NCBI GenBank assembly: GCA_046593995.1
Contig: JBKJQC010001225.1
Coordinates: 1-36,623 of the forward strand
Origin: Polyangiales bacterium
Lineage (GTDB): Bacteria; Myxococcota_A; Polyangia; Polyangiales; JADJMO01
Length of the DNA: 36,623 nt
Direction of reading: 5' to 3'
The notes under the pieces were generated by a model. That model was not told the DNA's origin and did not search any database. It worked only from the letters and a program-made list of their open reading frames with translations. Shown piece after piece: positions 1,949 through 31,607 of this stretch (positions are counted from its first letter, which is position 1; each line of letters begins with the position of its first letter). The position numbers and the translations under genes were made by a program.

Positions 1949-3895
1949 TCACTGCCCCTCCTGCGCGCGCCAGGCGTCCGAGGTGAGGTTGTTCGCCGAG
2001 GCGTAGGCCCGTTCCTTCACGAGGAGGCGGATCAACGTCCTGAGCTTGAAGCCGCCCTCGACGAACTTCTCTTCGAGCTTCGTCATCATCGGGCCGTCCT
2101 CGGTGCCGAGCTGACGACCGAGGAACGAGCTCGTCACGTTCGAGACCACGCAGCGCGCGAACTCGGGCGACTCGGTGATCTCCTTGCCGAGGCCCGCCGG
2201 TCCGGCGTCGGCGTTGGCCGGCGCGGCGTGCGCGCCGCGGAGGAACGCGTTCGTCGTGGTGACGAACGCCGGATCGTAGTAGTTGCGGCACTGCCCCGAG
2301 ATCTTCTTCGGATCCGCGTTGCGGCAGGTCGCGTTGTCGGCGGGGAAGAGCTCCTTCGGGAGGAACGTCCAGTCCGACTCGAGGACACGCGTGAAGTACG
2401 CGCTCATCGGCTCGAGCTTCGCGTGGCACGTCGCGCAACCGGCGCGCTTCGAGAGATCGGGCTCGTTCGAGGGTTCGAGCTTGACCTCTTCGGCCACGAA
2501 CTGGCGACACTGGAAGACGTTGTAGATGACGTGCGCGCGACCGCGGCGGGTGCCGTACTTCGAGAGGAAGACCGGCATGGTGAGGATGCCGGAGGCCTGC
2601 GGCCCGCGATCGGCGACCATCTTCCACTCGGCGACGTCGTAGGGCGCGAGCGCCGGGAGCTTCGTCGCGTCGACGAGACCTTCCGGGTGCGCGAGGCCGA
2701 ACTGATAGGCGTTGCCGCAGCAGTTCGCGGGCGCGTGGTACTTGTAGAACTGCGTCAGCGGACCGTTCACTGTCGTCCACTTGCCGGTGAGGATCTGGCG
2801 GAAGTCGCGGTCCTCCCTGGCGATGGTCTCGACGTAGCGGACCGCCTCCTGCGACCACCACTGACGGTGCCAAGCGCCGGCCGTCGTCTTCTCGATGCTC
2901 GTCGGCTTGTCGATGCCCATCATCGCGCCCGAGGGGAGCGTGAACGCGTTCGGCTCGGTGCCATTGCCCGCCGCGGGCATGCACTTCTCGAGACCGACGC
3001 CGCAGCCGCACTCGGTCGAGTGCGTGATCGCGGTGCCGCTGTCGCACGCGACCGACTGCCCCTTGTACGTGGTGGCGTAGGTGTCATCGAGCGGCAGCGC
3101 CTGCACGCGCTCGTAGGGAATGGGGGTGCCGGCGACGGGCGCTTTGCGGCCGGTCCAGTAGACGGTGCCGGTGTTCGCGGTCGACGCCTCTTCCTTGCAG
3201 ACGCGGACCTCGGTCGTCGTGGTCGTGCCGTCGGCTTCCGTGAGGAGCTCGGGGATCAGCGCGAACGACGCGTCGGCCGGCGTCCACCCGGTGCCGTACA
3301 GCTTCGTCGGGCTCGCCTCCTTGAAATCCTTGTAGAGCCACCATGGCTTCACCACGGTGGTGTTCGCGTCGAGCGCGGCCTGCGTCGTGTTGATCGGCGT
3401 GCCGATCGCGTTGCCGTTGGTCGTCCACGCGACCCCGGTCTCCTCCTTCGTCAGGCAGAACACGCCGTCGGTCGCCTCGCGCGTGCGGCGCTGCCCGTTG
3501 CGGTAGTAGACGTAGATCTTCTTCCCGTCGGGTCCTTGGAGCGTCTGGCGACGGAGGACCGAAGCGTTCGGCCGGAACGCGAACGTCGACCCGACGTCGA
3601 GCCGCAGGAGGTCCATGTACAAGCGACGGACCCGGCTCGCGTACCCCTGCGACGTCAGCGCCGTGTCGATGAACTTGTCGACGTCGAACGCGGGCTTTTC
3701 GAACGCCACGAGCTCCGCGCGCGACGGGACGCGACCCTGCAGGTCGACCATCAACGCGCGGAAGTAGCGGTACTCGGTCAGCGTCCGGGCAGCGCTCGGC
3801 GCCGCTTCGAGATGGCCGGCGCCGAGCGTGATCGCCGCGAGGGCAGCCGCCGAGACGAGGTGAGGCGCGAGGGAGGTGAGGGGTGAGCGTCGCAT
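1949..3895 (-). CDS. Secreted DUF1549/DUF1588/DUF1585-like protein with one CxxCH putative heme-c motif
   Basis: Signal peptide, RALMVDLQGRVPS N-terminal motif, GILTMPVFL..RGRA, CATCHAKLEP, and C-terminal FARCVV..FLGR..GGFKLRTLIR. Cys-rich. Confidence 0.75.
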   Translation of the reverse strand: MRRSPLTSLAPHLVSAAALAAITLGAGHLEAAPSAARTLTEYRYFRALMVDLQGRVPSRAELVAFEKPAFDVDKFIDTALTSQGYASRVRRLYMDLLRLDVGSTFAFRPNASVLRRQTLQGPDGKKIYVYYRNGQRRTREATDGVFCLTKEETGVAWTTNGNAIGTPINTTQAALDANTTVVKPWWLYKDFKEASPTKLYGTGWTPADASFALIPELLTEADGTTTTTEVRVCKEEASTANTGTVYWTGRKAPVAGTPIPYERVQALPLDDTYATTYKGQSVACDSGTAITHSTECGCGVGLEKCMPAAGNGTEPNAFTLPSGAMMGIDKPTSIEKTTAGAWHRQWWSQEAVRYVETIAREDRDFRQILTGKWTTVNGPLTQFYKYHAPANCCGNAYQFGLAHPEGLVDATKLPALAPYDVAEWKMVADRGPQASGILTMPVFLSKYGTRRGRAHVIYNVFQCRQFVAEEVKLEPSNEPDLSKRAGCATCHAKLEPMSAYFTRVLESDWTFLPKELFPADNATCRNADPKKISGQCRNYYDPAFVTTTNAFLRGAHAAPANADAGPAGLGKEITESPEFARCVVSNVTSSFLGRQLGTEDGPMMTKLEEKFVEGGFKLRTLIRLLVKERAYASANNLTSDAWRAQEGQ

Positions 3896-4074
3896 GACGA
3901 TTCGACTCCAGTGCGAAGGTGATGCCGAGTCGAGTCGACAGCGCTTTCCGCAGTGATCCTCATGGTGTCACGACGATGTGTCGTGGTGATCGGAAGAACG
4001 CGATCCTGAACGTGCGATCGATTCGATCACCCCATGAGCGAACCGATCGTGGGCGGGTGTAGGCTTCTCATCGC

Positions 4075-24696: not shown

Positions 24697-26163
24697 ATGG
24701 AGTTCCAATCCGCGTTGCCTCCCCGAGCCGCAGCGATTCGTCGCGCGAAGATCGTCTGCACGATCGGCCCGGCCTCCGAGAGCCCCGAGATGCTCGATGC
24801 GCTGTGCGCAGCGGGCATGGACGTGGCGCGCCTCAACTTCTCGCACGGCACCCACGAGGAGCACGCGGTCCGCGTGCGCAACATCCGCGCGGCCAGTGAG
24901 CGGAACCGGCGGCCGATCGCGATCCTCCAGGATCTCTGCGGCCCGAAGATCCGGGCGGGACGCATGGCCGCCGGTGCCTTCATGGCCCAGGCCGGCGCGA
25001 CGGTCGATCTCGTCGAAGGGGAGACGGAGCCGATCCCGAACGTGATCCCGATCGGCTACTCGGGCCTCGCCGAGGACGTAGCGGTCGGCGACCGCATCCT
25101 CGTCGACGACGGCCGGGTCATGTTCCGCGTCGACGCGATCGTCACCGAGGACGGCATCGCGCGCGTGCGCACGTTCGTCGAGCAGGGCGGCCGCGTGCAG
25201 AGCAAGGCCGGCGTGTTCCTCCCGAGCCGTCGCCTCCGCATCGAATCACTCACCGACAAGGACAAGATCGATCTCGAGTTCGGCCTCTCGCAGGGGGTCG
25301 ACTACGTCGGTCTGTCGTTCGTGCGCTCGGGGAAGGACGTCGATCAGCTGCGGGAGATCTGCGAAGCGTTCGGTCGGCCGACGCCGATCGTCGCGAAGAT
25401 CGAGACGCCGTCCGCGATCGAAGACCTGGACGCGATCGTGCGCGCCTCCGACGCCGTCATGGTCGCCCGCGGCGATCTCGCGGTGGAGATGGCACCCGAG
25501 CAGGTGCCGGTCCTCCAGAAGCGCATCCTCGCCGTCGCGCGCCGTCACCGGAGACCCGTCATCGTCGCGACCGAGATGCTGCACAGCATGGTCAAGAGCA
25601 CCCGGCCGACGCGCGCCGAGGCGAGCGACGTCGCGACCGCGGTCTTCGACGGCACCGACGCGGTCATGCTCTCGGGGGAGACCGCGAGCGGCGATCATCC
25701 GGCGCTCGCGGCGTCGATGATGGCGCGCATCGTCCAGATGGCCGAGGGCTCGCCGTACTTCACGCCGCCCGTCGATCGACTCGAGGTCGGCAAGACGAGC
25801 GTCGCCGAGAGCATCGCGCGCAACGCATGCGACATCGCCATCGAGGTGAAAGCGCGCCTCATCGTGTGCTTCACCCACTCCGGCGACACCGCCCGCCTCG
25901 TCTCGAAGGGACGACCGCCGGTGCCGATCATCGCGTTCTCGCCCATCGAGACGACGCGCCGTCGGCTCGCGCTCGTGTGGGGTGTGGTCCCGCGCACGCT
26001 CGGCGGCACCGCCACGAGCGAGGAGGAGGTGCTCAACCTGGCGACTGCGTACCTGATCTCGAACGGCCTCGCGTCCCCGGGCGACCGCGTGGTGCTCGTC
26101 TACGGCGGACCGCTGAACGTGAAGGGCACGACGAACGTCGTTCGCGTGCACGACGTGCGGTAG
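24697..26163 (+). CDS. pyk: Pyruvate kinase
   Basis: KIVCTIGPAS, ARLNFSHG, DLCGPKIR, AKIE, MVARGDL, ATEML.SM, PTRAE and DAVMLSGETA motifs. Confidence 0.97.
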   Translation: MEFQSALPPRAAAIRRAKIVCTIGPASESPEMLDALCAAGMDVARLNFSHGTHEEHAVRVRNIRAASERNRRPIAILQDLCGPKIRAGRMAAGAFMAQAGATVDLVEGETEPIPNVIPIGYSGLAEDVAVGDRILVDDGRVMFRVDAIVTEDGIARVRTFVEQGGRVQSKAGVFLPSRRLRIESLTDKDKIDLEFGLSQGVDYVGLSFVRSGKDVDQLREICEAFGRPTPIVAKIETPSAIEDLDAIVRASDAVMVARGDLAVEMAPEQVPVLQKRILAVARRHRRPVIVATEMLHSMVKSTRPTRAEASDVATAVFDGTDAVMLSGETASGDHPALAASMMARIVQMAEGSPYFTPPVDRLEVGKTSVAESIARNACDIAIEVKARLIVCFTHSGDTARLVSKGRPPVPIIAFSPIETTRRRLALVWGVVPRTLGGTATSEEEVLNLATAYLISNGLASPGDRVVLVYGGPLNVKGTTNVVRVHDVR

Positions 26164-27201: not shown

Positions 27202-27834
27202 TCAGAGGTGCACGCCGCCCGAGCCGAAGAGGGTCAGGGCGTTGTCGCCGGTCATCACCATGTAGCGTGCGTCACCACCGACGAAGAAGTTCCCGATCGG
27301 ATAGTGGACGGACGCGCCCGGCGCGACGTACACGCGCGAGTTGGTGTTGGTAGAGTCGGCGACCTGCGCCGCTGCGTTGCCGGACACGCTCTCCCGGCTG
27401 AACGCGTAGCCGAGGCCGACCACCGGGCGAAGGATGACCTTTCCGAGCCCGACGTCGTAGCCAGCCTCCGGACCGAGGTAGTAGCTCCGGGTGCTGATTT
27501 CGGAGCCGGCGTACTCGAGGCTCTTTCCGAAGTGGTAGTTCATGAGACCACCGACATAGATGCGGTTCGGGAACGTGTAGCCGGCCTTGAGACCGGTGCC
27601 GATCCCCATGCGGTCGCTGAACCCGGTACCGAGCATCGCGCCGCCGGAGAAGCCGGTCGGATTGGCGACGAAGTCGCGCTCGTTCTTCCGTGAGAGCTCA
27701 CCGACGTCCGTGCGCGGCTGTTCCGAGCCGGCGGCGGTGTTCACCTTCGGCGTCGTGATCTTGATCTCCTCCGCGACAGCGACGGTGGGGACCGAGAGGG
27801 CGAGAGCAGTGAGTGCGAAGATCATCTTGGACAC
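27202..27834 (-). CDS. Small outer-membrane beta-barrel protein
   Basis: Signal peptide, alternating aromatic/Gly beta-strands (LKAGYTF, YLGPEAGYD, FFVGGDARY), and SD AAAGGA upstream of the GTG. Confidence 0.8.
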   Translation of the reverse strand: MSKMIFALTALALSVPTVAVAEEIKITTPKVNTAAGSEQPRTDVGELSRKNERDFVANPTGFSGGAMLGTGFSDRMGIGTGLKAGYTFPNRIYVGGLMNYHFGKSLEYAGSEISTRSYYLGPEAGYDVGLGKVILRPVVGLGYAFSRESVSGNAAAQVADSTNTNSRVYVAPGASVHYPIGNFFVGGDARYMVMTGDNALTLFGSGGVHL

Positions 27835-27912: not shown

Positions 27913-28153
27913 GACCCGTTTGCCCGACCCAGCCGCGACCGTTCACGCTCGTCCGTTCACTGATCCGCGCACCCCTCGACCGCACTGCGCGCGTCGGGCT
28001 CACGTCGCGGCCGCTCACTGTCTGACGCGACCGCAGAGGCGTCGTGCACGGCATCTCGGCGAGCTCTGCCATCGGTCCGGTCGTCGCGGGGCTCCCGCGA
28101 GGACCCGTCCGTTACTTCTGCGCGGACCCTATGGCGCAATCGAGTCTTCGCGT

Positions 28154-28159
28154 TAGTAT
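28154..28159 (+). promoter_or_regulatory. -10 box TAGTAT, candidate promoter for the intergenic RNA
   Basis: Near-consensus TANNNT in TA-poor DNA at the start of the structured region; -35 box not convincing. Confidence 0.45.
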
Positions 28160-28165
28160 CTCGAG

Positions 28166-28650
28166 GTCACCACTCGATCGACGCGGCCGGGGGTTCCCCC
28201 TGGGCTAATCCACGAGGCGAACCGACGCCTCGACCACGTCGGAGGCACGCGGATCGTTCGCGCGAGCCTGCCCGTCCTGATGATGGCGCCTTGCAGGTCG
28301 TCCGAGAGATCCCCCCCAGTTGAACGCGCGGTCCGGTCCCCTTCGCGGAGGGCCCTCCCGCGCGCCGGCCTAGCCGGAGGAGGAGAGACATCATGCAGCG
28401 TACCAGTGGCCTCTACTTGGAGGGTCCGACCGCCTGACTCGACGCGGACGCCCCCCGCGCTCTCGTTCGCGTTGCGAACGAAGCGGCGGTGAGGTGCCTG
28501 CGTAGGCGGGTTGCAGTGTCTCTGCCGCGGAACCGATGGAGCCCCTCGGGAACATCGCATCGCGTGCCAGACAGAATACGGACAGCCTCTGTGTGAGGCC
28601 GAAGGACCGGTGGGCGGGTGGCAAGAGCGTCACCCGCCCATCGCTTTTCT
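28166..28650 (+). ncRNA. Putative large structured non-coding RNA or regulatory leader (family not recognised)
   Basis: No credible long ORF. Many nested helices whose wobble pairs are G-U on the + strand. Bounded by a -10 box and an intrinsic terminator. Confidence 0.55.
28608..28650 (+). terminator. Intrinsic terminator-like hairpin
   Basis: CGGTGGGCGGGTGGC-AAGAGC-GTCACCCGCCCATCG forms a 15-bp stem with 2 G-U pairs, followed by CTTTTCT. Confidence 0.7.
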
Positions 28651-28734: not shown

Positions 28735-29679
28735 ATGTTCGGCCTCGGAGAGCGTTTCGCCATCCCTCGCTACGACGCGGCGTTCTGGCGCGCCCTCGCC
28801 GCGTGGGGCGCGACGAAGCTCCCGCGCTACGTGCTCCGCTACTCGCCGGCCCCGATCGCGATCTCGGTCGGCCTCGCGCAGAAGCACCTCCGAACCCAAA
28901 TCCGCGAGAACCTGCGGCTGGTGCACGGCGTCCGCGCAGCGCCGATCGAAGCCCTCGACATCGCGTCGACGCTCTCGACCTATGGGCATTGCTTCGGGGA
29001 AGGGCTCGCCGCGGCCGGGGAGAATCCGCCCCCGTTCCGCTACAGCGTCGAGGGACGCGAGCACTTGTTCCGCGCGCGCGACAGCGGACGCGGCGCGATC
29101 CTCGTGACGTCGCACACCGGCTCGTGGGACGTGGCCGGTGGCGTCATGAACCTCCGCGGTTTCGATCTCGCGATCGCGATGGCGCCCGAGCGCGACCCAG
29201 AGGCGCGCCGCATCAGCGACGCCGCGCGGAAGAAGATGGGCGTGACCGTCTTCCACGTCGGCGACGATCCGCTCTCGGCCCTGCCGCTCGCGCAGCACGT
29301 TCGACGGGGCGGCGCGGTCGCCTTGCAAATCGATCGCGTCCCGCCGGGGATGCGTACGCGCGTCTCGACGTTCTTCGGCAAGCCCTGGCACGTGCCGCTC
29401 GGCCCGTTCCAGCTGGCGCAGGTGACGGGCGCGCCGCTCATCCCCGTGTTCACCGCGCGGCTCGGCTTCGCGCACCACCTCGTGCGCGCCGAAGCGCCGA
29501 TCGCGGTCCCTCGGCGCGCATCGGGCGCAGAGCTCGATCGCGCGATCACCCAGGCGATGCAGGCGATCGAGCGCTTCGTGCGCCGCTTCCCGACGCAGTG
29601 GTTCCACTACGTCCCGCATCCCCTCGCCGAGGATGCCGCGTCCGACTTCCTCGCCGGGGACGACGCGAAGTCGGCCTGA
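28735..29679 (+). CDS. Lysophospholipid/lipid A late acyltransferase family (LpxL/HtrB-like)
   Basis: VEGREHL, GAILVTSHTGSWD (HxxxxD), FFGK, GPFQLA..TGAPLIP and RRFPTQW motifs. Confidence 0.85.
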   Translation: MFGLGERFAIPRYDAAFWRALAAWGATKLPRYVLRYSPAPIAISVGLAQKHLRTQIRENLRLVHGVRAAPIEALDIASTLSTYGHCFGEGLAAAGENPPPFRYSVEGREHLFRARDSGRGAILVTSHTGSWDVAGGVMNLRGFDLAIAMAPERDPEARRISDAARKKMGVTVFHVGDDPLSALPLAQHVRRGGAVALQIDRVPPGMRTRVSTFFGKPWHVPLGPFQLAQVTGAPLIPVFTARLGFAHHLVRAEAPIAVPRRASGAELDRAITQAMQAIERFVRRFPTQWFHYVPHPLAEDAASDFLAGDDAKSA

Positions 29680-30059: not shown

Positions 30060-30101
30060 GGAGCACCTCCCTCGCGCGAGATGCTGCAACGCGTGAGCCG
30101 C

Positions 30102-31607
30102 TCAGGACGCGATCGGCAGAGACATGCGGCGCGGCGGCTTCGGGAGGGCCGCGAACGCCTTGCGATACGCCGCGAACGTGCCTCCACCCTGCACGGCGTC
30201 GTAGACGGCGCGGCCTTCGGTGCCTCCGCCCTTGGCGAGGACCGCCTCGACCCAAGCCCACTTCGCGCTCGTCGCGCGGACGTCGGCGCGCCCCTTGAGA
30301 CCACGGCGGAGTCGATCGAGCCGACGGTCGACGACGTCGATGCCGGCGAACTCGGCGTCGACGAGCGGCGTATTTCGCTTCGGGCAGAAGGGCGCGATCC
30401 CGAGGGCGACGGGCACGATCCGCGACAGCTCGGTCGTGAACTTCACGCACTCGTCGACGTCTTCGTCGGTCTCCGTCGGGATGCCGAGCATGAGGTAGAG
30501 CTTGAGGCGGTCCATCTTTGCGGCGCGCGCGTTCTCGGCTGCTTTGACGAGGTGGCGCTCCTCGGCCCGACGATCGAGCAGCTTGCGCACGCGCTCGCTC
30601 GGGCCGTCCATCGCGGTCGTCAGCGTGCGATAACCGGCGTCCTTCAGCGTCTGCACGAACTCCGGCTTGAGCTTGTCCGGACGGAGCGACGACAGCCCGA
30701 CCTCGCACCCCCGATCCACGAGCGCGCGCACGACCTCGACGATCTTCGGATGATCGCTGACCGCGGCGCCGACCAGCCCCACGCGGCGCGCGTCGAGCGG
30801 GATGCGATCGAGGATCACGTCCATCGGAACGATGCGCATGCCGCCGTTCGTCGACCGACGCATCACGCAGTACGTGCAGCCGCGCGAGCAGCCGCGCGAG
30901 GTCTCGACGAGGAACATCGAGGAGAGCGCGGTCTCCGCGGCGCGGATCCCGCCCCAGGCCGGCAGATCCTCGTCGTGGATCTGCGCGAGCGAAGGGAGCC
31001 GATCGCCGTGGTGCTCGGGCACCCAGACGTGGTCCATCTTTGCGAGCGCCGCGAGGCGATCCTCGTGCTTCGGCGTCGACGCGATCACGTTCGCGACCTC
31101 GATCACCAGGTTCTCGGCCTCGCCGAGGATCACTGCGTCGCAGTAAGGCGCGAGGGGCGTGGGGTTCGAGAACGTGAGCGGACCGCCGGCCAAGACGAAC
31201 GGATGACGCTCGTCGCGCTGATCGCGGAAGGCCGGGATGTTCGCAGCCTCGAGCACCTGGATCACGCCGGAGAGCTCGAGCTCGTACGCGACGCTCAGGG
31301 CCACCAGCGGGAAGTCCGACACCGGCCGCAGCGTCTCGTACGTCAGCAGGATCGGCTGCGGCTGGCCTGGCTTCGCGTCGTCGTCGAGGAACGCGCGCTC
31401 GCAGCAGAGCCCTGGCGACTCCTGGAAGGAGCGGTAGATGCGCTGGAACCCGAGCGACGACATCCCGACCGTGTACGGAGACGGGTACACGAGCGCGCAG
31501 GCGAACGGTGCCTGCTTCGGGATCGCGCCGACCTCGGAGCCGAGCCGCCGCCGCACCTTGTCGCGGAACGAGGTGCCTCCTCGCGAAGCGGGTGACGGGT
31601 GGGACAT
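30102..31607 (-). CDS. Radical SAM protein (B12-binding-like N-domain)
   Basis: YPSPY.VGMSSLG, ETSRGCSRGCTYC (CxxxCxxC), SLRPD, KLYLMLG.P and PF.PK.NTP motifs. Confidence 0.9.
   Translation of the reverse strand: MSHPSPASRGGTSFRDKVRRRLGSEVGAIPKQAPFACALVYPSPYTVGMSSLGFQRIYRSFQESPGLCCERAFLDDDAKPGQPQPILLTYETLRPVSDFPLVALSVAYELELSGVIQVLEAANIPAFRDQRDERHPFVLAGGPLTFSNPTPLAPYCDAVILGEAENLVIEVANVIASTPKHEDRLAALAKMDHVWVPEHHGDRLPSLAQIHDEDLPAWGGIRAAETALSSMFLVETSRGCSRGCTYCVMRRSTNGGMRIVPMDVILDRIPLDARRVGLVGAAVSDHPKIVEVVRALVDRGCEVGLSSLRPDKLKPEFVQTLKDAGYRTLTTAMDGPSERVRKLLDRRAEERHLVKAAENARAAKMDRLKLYLMLGIPTETDEDVDECVKFTTELSRIVPVALGIAPFCPKRNTPLVDAEFAGIDVVDRRLDRLRRGLKGRADVRATSAKWAWVEAVLAKGGGTEGRAVYDAVQGGGTFAAYRKAFAALPKPPRRMSLPIAS

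Follow-up and report, generated by a model that had tools for sequence, protein, structure and literature searches.

A structured small RNA with a mini-open reading frame, conserved across the order Polyangiales

An intergenic gap in a 36,623-nucleotide (nt) stretch of DNA from a Polyangiales bacterium (GenBank assembly GCA_046593995.1, contig JBKJQC010001225.1; this whole stretch is called the window below) raises the question of what is encoded between its flanking genes. An earlier note on this DNA had proposed that positions 28154-28650 specify a large, multi-domain RNA of a class that it could not match, either non-coding or a riboswitch-like leader, in a gap with no credible coding sequence. 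In this gap lies the gene for a free-standing, heavily folded small RNA that had not been catalogued before and that carries a mini-open reading frame (mini-ORF). Reading of the plus strand of 28154-28650 gives a -10-like box, dense helices, a long rod, and an intrinsic terminator of 15 bp, and the TAGTAT box, helices, rod, and terminator described in the note were all found at their places by sequence reading and minimum free energy (MFE) folding.

The plus strand of this region folds at -250.2 kcal/mol, as compared with -226.2 +/- 6.5 kcal/mol for dinucleotide shuffles (z -3.69), and none of 100 shuffles did as well, whereas the minus strand reached a z of only -1.79, with 3 of 100 shuffles as good. 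The fold thus goes beyond what 70% G+C leads one to expect and is strand-specific, in agreement with the proposal of a selected RNA fold on the plus strand. Moreover, a model of the conserved core (see below) matched on the plus strand only.

Comparison with known RNA families gave no name for this RNA. Rfam 15 produced no match in the whole window at gathering thresholds, and in E-value mode the region gave seven chance matches (E 0.17-9.2), all to microRNA or small RNA (sRNA) models far under gathering. Among 15 diverse homologous loci Rfam found nothing but two neighbouring tRNAs, and for the locus of Sorangium cellulosum So ce56 the best match (E 0.14) was under the gathering threshold. 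ARAGORN detected neither tRNA nor transfer-messenger RNA (tmRNA) in the window. In five genomes that carry the RNA, matches above cut-off were obtained for RNase P (RF00010; five of five), tmRNA (RF00023; four), signal recognition particle (SRP) RNA (RF00169; four), and 6S RNA (RF00013; three), all at other loci, so that the exclusion of these four classes by the earlier note stands. The genome of the window is 86% complete and has RNase P elsewhere; tmRNA and SRP RNA were not found in its assembly, where the tmRNA model gives sub-threshold matches only, on other contigs. The literature searched holds no description of the RNA or its peptide; neither is mentioned in the examined passages of PMC11109978, PMC10128143, and PMC8538405, and the myxobacterial literature searched, with passages of a 2021 genomics review, names only Pxr and a non-coding RNA survey in Myxococcus. 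The RNA is therefore assigned to a family of its own among the free-standing structured small RNAs that carry a mini-ORF; it is large, multi-domain, and absent from Rfam 15, as had been supposed, but it is not purely non-coding.

When 41 relatives were searched at the DNA level, 11 genomes gave matches, including all eight other genomes of the window's family, and two matches outside the family that were short (46-55 nt). Absence from known families, retention in relatives, and folding better than every shuffle were thus all found, as the earlier note had asked of its candidate. In a family-wide search nine of nine genomes had one locus each, that of one genome being split over two contig ends. 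The family alignment consists of conserved blocks at 28184-28264, at 28322-28428, and in the terminator region, with variable stretches between them; the most conserved block comprises a hairpin, a second hairpin, GGAGGAGGAG, and ATG with 14 codons, and conservation falls off at the stop. A model of this core (R1; hairpins P1 and P2, Shine-Dalgarno [SD] site, and ORF), built from 11 sequences, matched at full length in 48 of the 151 order genomes that were sampled and, in a phylum-wide sample, in 8 of 151. After rebuilding from 59 matches (R3), 106 of the 151 order genomes were positive at E <= 1e-6 (105 of 150 without one unpublished genome), as were 76 of the 114 genomes that are at least 90% complete and at most 5% contaminated, and nearly every positive genome had exactly one match. 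By family, the counts were 8/8 (f1), 13/15 (f3), 9/10 (f7), 22/23 (f9), 4/4 (f14), 14/23 (f17), 17/23 (f22), 3/23 (f16), and 0/3 (f8). In the phylum sample R3 matched 50 of 151 genomes at E <= 0.01 and only 23 at E < 1e-7; six of these 23 come from outside the order, two from a further order of the same class and four from a single family of another class. Four of the six were inspected and have the full layout. Weaker matches outside the order (E 1e-5 to 1e-2) are probable noise.

Exact-pattern scans gave a consistent picture. A degenerate pattern run over 185,579 species genomes found 61 stretches, 54 of them in records of Myxococcota or 'delta-proteobacteria' and the other seven in unrelated phyla, where they look like chance; the species named are Sorangium cellulosum So ce56, So0157-2, So ce26, and So ceGT47, many Sorangium sp., Minicystis rosea, and Byssovorax cruenta. 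The first genome scan, with an exact motif, had returned the eight known family genomes, titled as uncultured Myxococcota or Polyangiales metagenome-assembled genomes, and three chance matches. A metagenome scan with an exact pattern gave 68 stretches, three of them true members and 65 chance matches inside coding regions. On the strength of these sequence searches, the RNA is conserved across the order Polyangiales and is near single-copy.

The best conserved part of the family is an SD-led mini-ORF of 12-16 codons, and in this respect the earlier statement that the gap has no credible coding sequence has to be revised. A long coding sequence is excluded, because indels of arbitrary length disrupt it across relatives; the longer ORFs in the gap (70 amino acids on the plus strand, 135 on the minus strand) had no Pfam match. 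An in-frame stop is present in 76 of 77 mini-ORF instances, which yield 64 unique ORFs with lengths of 14 (38 ORFs), 16 (12), 13 (8), and 15 (6) codons. Their stops are TAG (35), TGA (17), or TAA (12), at a homologous position in an otherwise variable stretch. The ORFs differ in length by indels of 3 or 6 nt that lie 3' of the AUG and ahead of the conserved arm, and in 55 of the 64 the AUG and the conserved purine block are 21, 24, 27, 30, or 33 nt apart, the other nine being pattern matches at shifted places. The last GGAG(G) is 7-10 nt away from the AUG in 53 of 60 unique ribosome-binding site (RBS) regions. These signatures suggest that the reading frame of the mini-ORF is maintained.

The same stretch of sequence could also be explained by a purely non-coding RNA, a protein-binding or base-pairing regulator in which the SD-like tract and the ORF would be untranslated by-products. 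Such an RNA would fit the flat entropy over codon positions and the coincidence of ORF conservation with helices, the invariant single-stranded AUGCAYAGUAC could serve as its seed, and its abundance and single copy would resemble those of housekeeping RNAs. It leaves unexplained, however, why TAG, TGA, and TAA interchange at one position of a variable stretch, why the AUG-to-arm indels come in threes and sixes, why the SD spacing is in the functional range in those 53 of 60 regions, and why the ORF stays at 12-16 codons even where its sequence is unrelated; we therefore consider a purely non-coding RNA unlikely.

If the frame is read, its product may or may not be what is selected. Outside the order the peptides are unrelated, for example MGNPSVLLTRCRIR, MPSTERRSEEDRP, and MKRNCTSSMEASS, while the length and the RNA elements persist. 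Within Polyangiaceae the ORF is rich in A/T-ending codons, which are rare at 70% G+C. A very small, highly expressed mRNA, with the 12-16-residue peptide as effector and folded untranslated regions that give stability or translational control, would account for the strong SD with optimal spacing, for the kept frame and stop, for the high abundance in metatranscriptomes, and for the N-terminus M-[HQD]-S-T and the Ser/Thr/Cys-rich residues 3-5 that recur within the order; the A/T-ending rare codons after the AUG would then keep the start open. We regard this as rather unlikely, as the variation has no three-base periodicity, the peptides outside the order are unrelated although the RNA elements persist, the conserved residues sit on RNA helix arms, and no partner genes are consistently adjacent. 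Being translated is probably what matters, and not the product.

How tightly ribosomes might be held was assessed by comparison with the 16S rRNA tail, taken from five loci of four relatives. The SD of the window forms six contiguous Watson-Crick pairs with it (eight with G-U), and the longest Watson-Crick run in the 60 unique RBS regions is 5 nt in 29, 6 nt in 21, 7 nt in eight, and 8 nt in two. This bears on a comparison with rreB and rreR, which are described by Hahn et al. (2016, RNA Biol 14:1353, PMC5711450) as conserved small mRNAs of Alphaproteobacteria with a small ORF (sORF) of 14 or 18 residues, a 17-nt SD, and strong 30S binding, their function being elusive and regulation being thought to occur at the ribosome. 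The RNA described here is the same kind of object, a well-expressed, free-standing transcript with its own promoter (promoter-like in our case) and terminator and a tiny sORF: against the roughly 14-18 codons of the rre type, all 64 unique complete ORFs have 13-16. In addition, PMC5711450 places rreB of Bradyrhizobium next to a tRNA-Gly gene, as the Polyangiales RNA is in one family. The hallmark is nevertheless missing, since rre RNAs are perfectly complementary to the 3' end of 16S rRNA over 16-17 nt (at least 16 nt by definition), and all 60 RBS regions offer 5-8 nt. Furthermore, rreB is 165 nt long and starts with GUG, whereas the Polyangiales RNA starts with AUG, is 2-3 times longer (290-550 nt), belongs to a different phylum, and has P1/P2, an ORF within a rod, and a four-way junction that is absent from rreB. 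A ribosome-tethering mini-mRNA of the rre type, bound tightly to 30S through its SD and regulated at the ribosome, is consequently a very unlikely identity. As a best guess we favour a translation-coupled regulatory RNA or mini-mRNA, whose closest counterparts in kind are rreB/rreR although it lacks their hallmark.

The structure around the mini-ORF is supported by compensatory base changes. In the 59-sequence alignment fitted to the core model, the six outer pairs of P1 are 98.3% paired and all six have double changes, whereas the CCGG/CCGG pairs of P2 are invariant or nearly so (59/59 sequences); the fifth P2 pair is changed from C-G to U-A in one genus, and P2 of more distant class-level relatives reads CUGGC/GCCAG. 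For the whole core, 94.9% of cells are paired, 12 of 16 pairs have double changes, and the covariation score is 0.352 versus 0.167 +/- 0.009 for shuffles, with slid controls at or below 0.116. RNAalifold on a MAFFT alignment of the core returned zero compensatory pairs, because the inner P1 stem was misaligned there. Sequestration of the SD by an anti-SD CUCCCCC 5' of P1, seen by eye in one family, was unsupported in folding of 50 RNAs and was dropped as a general mechanism.

The four-way junction near the 5' end behaves similarly. Among nine family members, RNAalifold found compensatory changes in its helices H4 and H1, and in the terminator stem as well (alignment pairs 547-574, 549-570, and 556-563). 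The nucleotides of the junction differ from family to family, and in other families it takes the form GAU-GGGC..GCCC-CGGAUUGGUCCG-AAA-hairpin-AUC. In the model-fitted alignment of 24 sequences, 84.4% of cells are paired, 15 of 19 pairs have double changes, and the score is 0.384 versus 0.178 +/- 0.017 for shuffles, with slid controls at or below 0.10; in an unfitted MAFFT alignment of 15 sequences it is 0.263 versus 0.180, and none of 500 shuffles was as good. Model R2, made from the junction of the other families, matched 24 of 61 sources at E <= 1 and missed Sorangium and all f1 loci, including the window; the junction thus differs between sub-lineages, and its assignment in the window rests on RNAalifold of the nine members and on reading. 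A search of five genomes for further copies returned the known locus only, plus three matches at E 0.2-0.85. The junction is a candidate binding site for a modulating protein or small ligand.

Pairing between the ORF and the 3' region was predicted in most detail in the short-type RNAs (~300 nt) of other families, in which ORF codons 6-12 pair with both arms of the pre-terminator hairpin and the stop codon lies near the tip of the resulting rod. In the window's family, equivalent pairings are predicted across some 150 variable bases, and the long-range partner strand GUGUCUC (within 28510-28523) is kept in four of four genera, which is conservation and not covariation. Since the ORF arms and the pre-terminator arms are nearly identical in sequence, two local hairpins or one long rod are both possible; a change of the ORF from GAG to AAG in one genus, matched by a change of the 3' arm from CUC to CUU, favours the long-range form. 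When duplex energies were compared with those of shuffled 3' regions, 17 of 44 lineages gave a significant ORF-to-3' pairing, with no more than 5 of 100 shuffles as good.

Expression was examined through the locus of S. cellulosum So ce56, of which a 601-nt stretch was searched for in sequencing runs. Part of this stretch was present in 20 of the 24 runs listed and at least half its words in 16; the runs came from 19 studies, 11 were recorded as RNA, and they are metatranscriptomes of soil, root, rhizosphere, and mangrove with 80-1100 million letters. Contigs of four runs, from four studies, were aligned to local positions 3140-3940 of Sorangium. In all four, a contig starts at 3295/3296, the foot of the junction; one run has a single 489-nt contig that corresponds to 3296-3784, the RNA and nothing more, in one run adapter sequence adjoins 3295 and 3768, and in an oligo-dT library poly(A) adjoins 3809, within the T tract of the terminator. 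The flanks (3140-3274 and 3815-3940) have a depth of 0 in all four runs, which contrasts with the covered RNA and is no proof of absence, and the summed depth of the conserved core (3410-3490) reaches 1745 in one run, the contigs being those of related species. Taken together, adapter and poly(A) sequence abutting the predicted ends, flanks without cover, and recovery from small metatranscriptomes point to a discrete, abundant RNA of some 490-515 nt. Covariation of P1 and the junction, and a discrete transcript, here for the Sorangium homologue, were among the checks that the earlier note had set out. The 5' end at 3295/3296 lies 14-15 nt 3' of the best -10-like hexamer, TACGCT (region 3275-3296), farther than usual, and the mature 5' end may therefore be processed, at the foot of the junction.

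That the RNA is free-standing follows from its surroundings as well. A cis-acting leader, either a riboswitch or a leader-peptide attenuator, of the acyltransferase gene at 28735-29679 (Pfam Lip_A_acyltrans, E 8e-24) was suggested by the position of that gene in the window's genus, on the same strand with its start 85 nt past the terminator, and a 14-codon ORF followed by a terminator is reminiscent of attenuators of the trpL type. In a sister genus, however, the acyltransferase gene is upstream and divergent, and in two other genera it is 4-5 kb away. Crude gene calls based on third-position G+C at 65 loci put the next gene on the same strand in 28, convergent in 19, and called none in 18, and no universal partner gene was found among these neighbours, where ychF, pyruvate kinase, a metallo-beta-lactamase (MBL)-fold hydrolase, and tRNA-Gly recur in some lineages only. 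The RNA is not an acyltransferase leader, given its own terminator, a next gene that differs from lineage to lineage and, of 47 loci where one was called, is convergent in 19, and a 5' domain that occurs only at this locus. Moreover, the folds contain no antiterminator pairing to the terminator, the mini-ORF has no run of one regulatory codon, and the Sorangium contigs end in the terminator region (3743-3809), with the flank from 3815 uncovered. Synteny largely refutes the acyltransferase leader, to which we give next to no chance. The riboswitch-like leader of the earlier note is not supported; the 5' domain of the RNA was found nowhere else in the five genomes searched.

Taking these results together, we give an even chance to a free-standing, single-copy, abundant small RNA of Polyangiales with a mini-ORF that is read by ribosomes and whose translation sets the state of the RNA. 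Ribosomes would initiate at an exposed SD-AUG presented by P1/P2 and read 14 codons. ORF codons 5-11 would be paired with both arms of the pre-terminator hairpin, and in the window's family the start region would be paired with 28510-28523 as well; with ORF and start held in the rod, each round of translation would have to melt it and the 3' arms would refold locally. The RNA would then toggle between the rod and a two-hairpin state with ribosome traffic, which most likely would set its stability or its action on partners, rather than the peptide acting itself. The rod, which in some lineages reaches about 20 contiguous pairs, would be a plausible substrate of RNase III, and the four-way junction may dock a protein or ligand that modulates the toggling.

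Several results weigh against this reading. Codon-position entropy is flat in the 38 fourteen-codon ORFs (1.04, 1.18, and 1.19), so the peptide is without visible purifying selection, and the best-conserved codons fall on helix arms. Partition-function folding of 50 RNAs gave a median unpaired probability of only 0.395 for the SD and 0.525 for the AUG, and the predicted partners of the SD vary among lineages; hence a conserved on/off switch at the RBS is not apparent. Neither in the window itself (z -0.01) nor in 27 of the 44 lineages does the ORF-to-3' duplex do better than shuffles. The covariation counts of the core and of the junction come from alignments fitted to their models, and the evidence of expression is from the Sorangium locus; contigs in an RNA library do not prove transcription, their shared stops being a weak hint. 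Translation of the mini-ORF is inferred from sequence features, and the function given to the RNA is a proposal of the same standing.

A bolder version would make the RNA a fifth near-universal housekeeping-grade RNA besides tmRNA, RNase P, SRP RNA, and 6S RNA, namely a ribosome-read sensor of Polyangiales and some neighbouring Myxococcota; we consider this doubtful. If it were true, the junction would bind a cellular signal, ribosomes would flip the 3' rod by means of a mini-ORF that is not there for its peptide, and the RNA would signal how much translational capacity there is to another process, such as RNase III decay, a bound protein, or targets in trans. We know of no described RNA class that works in this manner.

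Other known systems share individual traits with this RNA. Like tmRNA, it is single-copy, abundant, structured, and a few hundred nt long, with a short internal frame flanked by folded domains; it differs in having no tRNA-like acceptor and T-arm (ARAGORN negative) and no Rfam match, in having a canonical SD and AUG and no resume codon, and in a peptide end that is not a degradation tag. In the dual-function sRNAs RNAIII/hld, SgrS/SgrT, SR1/SR1P, and rnTrpL/peTrpL an independent transcript both folds and encodes a small peptide, which is 14 residues long in peTrpL; none of them has the architecture of the Polyangiales RNA, the peptide of which is not conserved beyond the order. Attenuators of the trpL type and the cyanobacterial Downstream-peptide/glutamine-II motif combine a structured element or short ORF with a following intrinsic terminator. 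The Polyangiales RNA departs from attenuators and from riboswitch-plus-sORF elements in lacking a conserved downstream gene and regulatory codon runs, and in a 5' domain that is confined to this locus: no Rfam match to families of the Downstream-peptide/glutamine-II type was obtained at E <= 10 for the window or at E <= 1 for 15 relatives, and the 64 unique ORFs hold no attenuator codon run, apart from residues 3-5 being loosely enriched in Ser/Thr/Cys. With regard to a riboswitch, the junction covaries and occurs once per genome at one locus, and no consistent SD-sequestering helix is predicted.

Polyangiales include Sorangium, a main microbial source of natural products such as epothilone, and are abundant soil predators, and their RNA biology has hardly been explored. 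A central role is likely for an RNA that occurs in single copy throughout the order and is abundant enough to assemble cleanly from soil metatranscriptomes of a few hundred million bases. It would be a well-supported addition to the handful of free-standing mini-mRNAs with a conserved frame but an unconserved peptide, and since the cultured, genetically tractable Sorangium strains belong to the RNA family, the question of its function can be tested directly. Moreover, the models could serve for the annotation of several hundred genomes and so fill an intergenic gap that recurrently appears 'empty'.

Table 1. Elements of the RNA gene on the plus strand of the window
Feature	Position	Strand	Basis and remarks
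-35-like hexamer TGGCGC	28132-28137	+	putative; read from sequence and family alignment
-10-like box TAGTAT	28154-28159	+	putative promoter; read from sequence
5' four-way junction	28179-28241	+	RNAalifold on nine family members, and reading
Junction helix H1	28179-28186 with 28234-28241	+	RNAalifold
Junction helix H2	28189-28200	+	RNAalifold
Junction helix H3	28201-28212	+	RNAalifold
Junction helix H4, GAGGCG/CGCCTC	28214-28231	+	MFE and consensus fold of nine family members
Variable linker with local hairpins	28242-28321	+	helices in MFE only
GAACG motif and hairpin P1	28322-28364 (hairpin 28325-28364)	+	MFE and nine-member consensus fold
P1 outer stem	28325-28330 with 28359-28364	+	inner stem variable
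Hairpin P2, CCGGC-CUA-GCCGG	28365-28377	+	MFE and nine-member consensus; abuts P1, which is stacked on it, and the SD site
SD tract GGAGGAGGAG	28376-28385	+	begins in the last P2 bases
14-codon mini-ORF, peptide MQRTSGLYLEGPTA, stop TGA	28393-28437	+	3' of GGAGGAGGAG
Long-range helix, 5' strand over SD-AUG spacer and start codon	28384-28399 with 28510-28523	+	MFE
ORF arms	28407-28413 with 28595-28601; 28420-28423 with 28586-28589	+	RNAalifold, family
Alternative local hairpin P3	28410-28413 with 28420-28423	+	RNAalifold, family
Variable 3' region, apical part of rod (includes 28510-28523)	28438-28584	+	poorly conserved
Pre-terminator hairpin GCCUC...GAGGC	28585-28601	+	arms complementary to ORF arms; sequence kept in 9/9 family members
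Intrinsic terminator with T tract	28608-28650	+	stem 28608-28643, 15 pairs (11 G-C), loop 6, then CTTTTCT

The putative promoter elements follow a layout, TGGCGC-N16-TAnnnT, that is kept within the window's family: TGGCGC (TGGCCA in one genus) lies 16 nt 5' of the -10-like box in four of four genera, and the latter reads TAACAT, TAATAT, TATGCT, or TACACT in relatives. A simple sigma-70 consensus scan called no promoter here. The linker between junction and P1 varies in length by tens of bases, even inside the family. The RNA is about 480 nt long in the window and 290-550 nt elsewhere, and an intrinsic terminator was detected in most loci, approximately 55-400 nt 3' of the mini-ORF stop. In one genome (L130), three to four tandem copies of the terminator hairpin with its flank follow the RNA, 0-350 nt past the core match, and at another locus (L066) a short tandem repeat of the GTCGACA type follows directly past the terminator.

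Among the recurrent neighbours, ychF, which encodes a ribosome-associated ATPase, is directly upstream of the RNA in several families (L110, L111, L116, L135, L149, and L175; YchF-GTPase_C E 1e-39 in L110), and in the window's family the upstream neighbour is pyruvate kinase (24697-26163). An MBL-fold hydrolase of 260 amino acids (Lactamase_B_2 E 1e-19, PDEase_II-like) accompanies the RNA at 13 loci spread over several families, where it is either downstream of the RNA in convergent orientation or upstream of it in the same orientation (for example L130:1996-2778 on the minus strand and L136:571-1347 on the plus strand). In one family a tRNA gene, in one orientation or the other, is no more than a few hundred bases away from the RNA (L115:811-883, L119:1911-1983, and downstream in L128), with an anticodon loop that by eye reads CCC (Gly). 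In the window itself, 30105-31607 on the minus strand encodes a B12-binding radical S-adenosylmethionine (SAM) protein of 501 amino acids (Radical_SAM_N2 E 8.7e-34, Radical_SAM E 1.2e-21), and the 504-amino-acid ORF on the opposite strand (30081-31595) has no Pfam match and is not a real gene; the radical SAM gene and the acyltransferase gene (28735-29679) form one block that is inverted in a sister genus. Finally, the putative outer membrane protein ('OMP') gene at 27202-27834 on the minus strand has a sub-threshold Pfam match only (Autotransporter beta-domain, E 0.007, 16.6 bits versus a cut-off of 26), and it is present only in the window's genus, where pyruvate kinase and the RNA are separated by an insertion that comprises this gene and an alpha/beta hydrolase.

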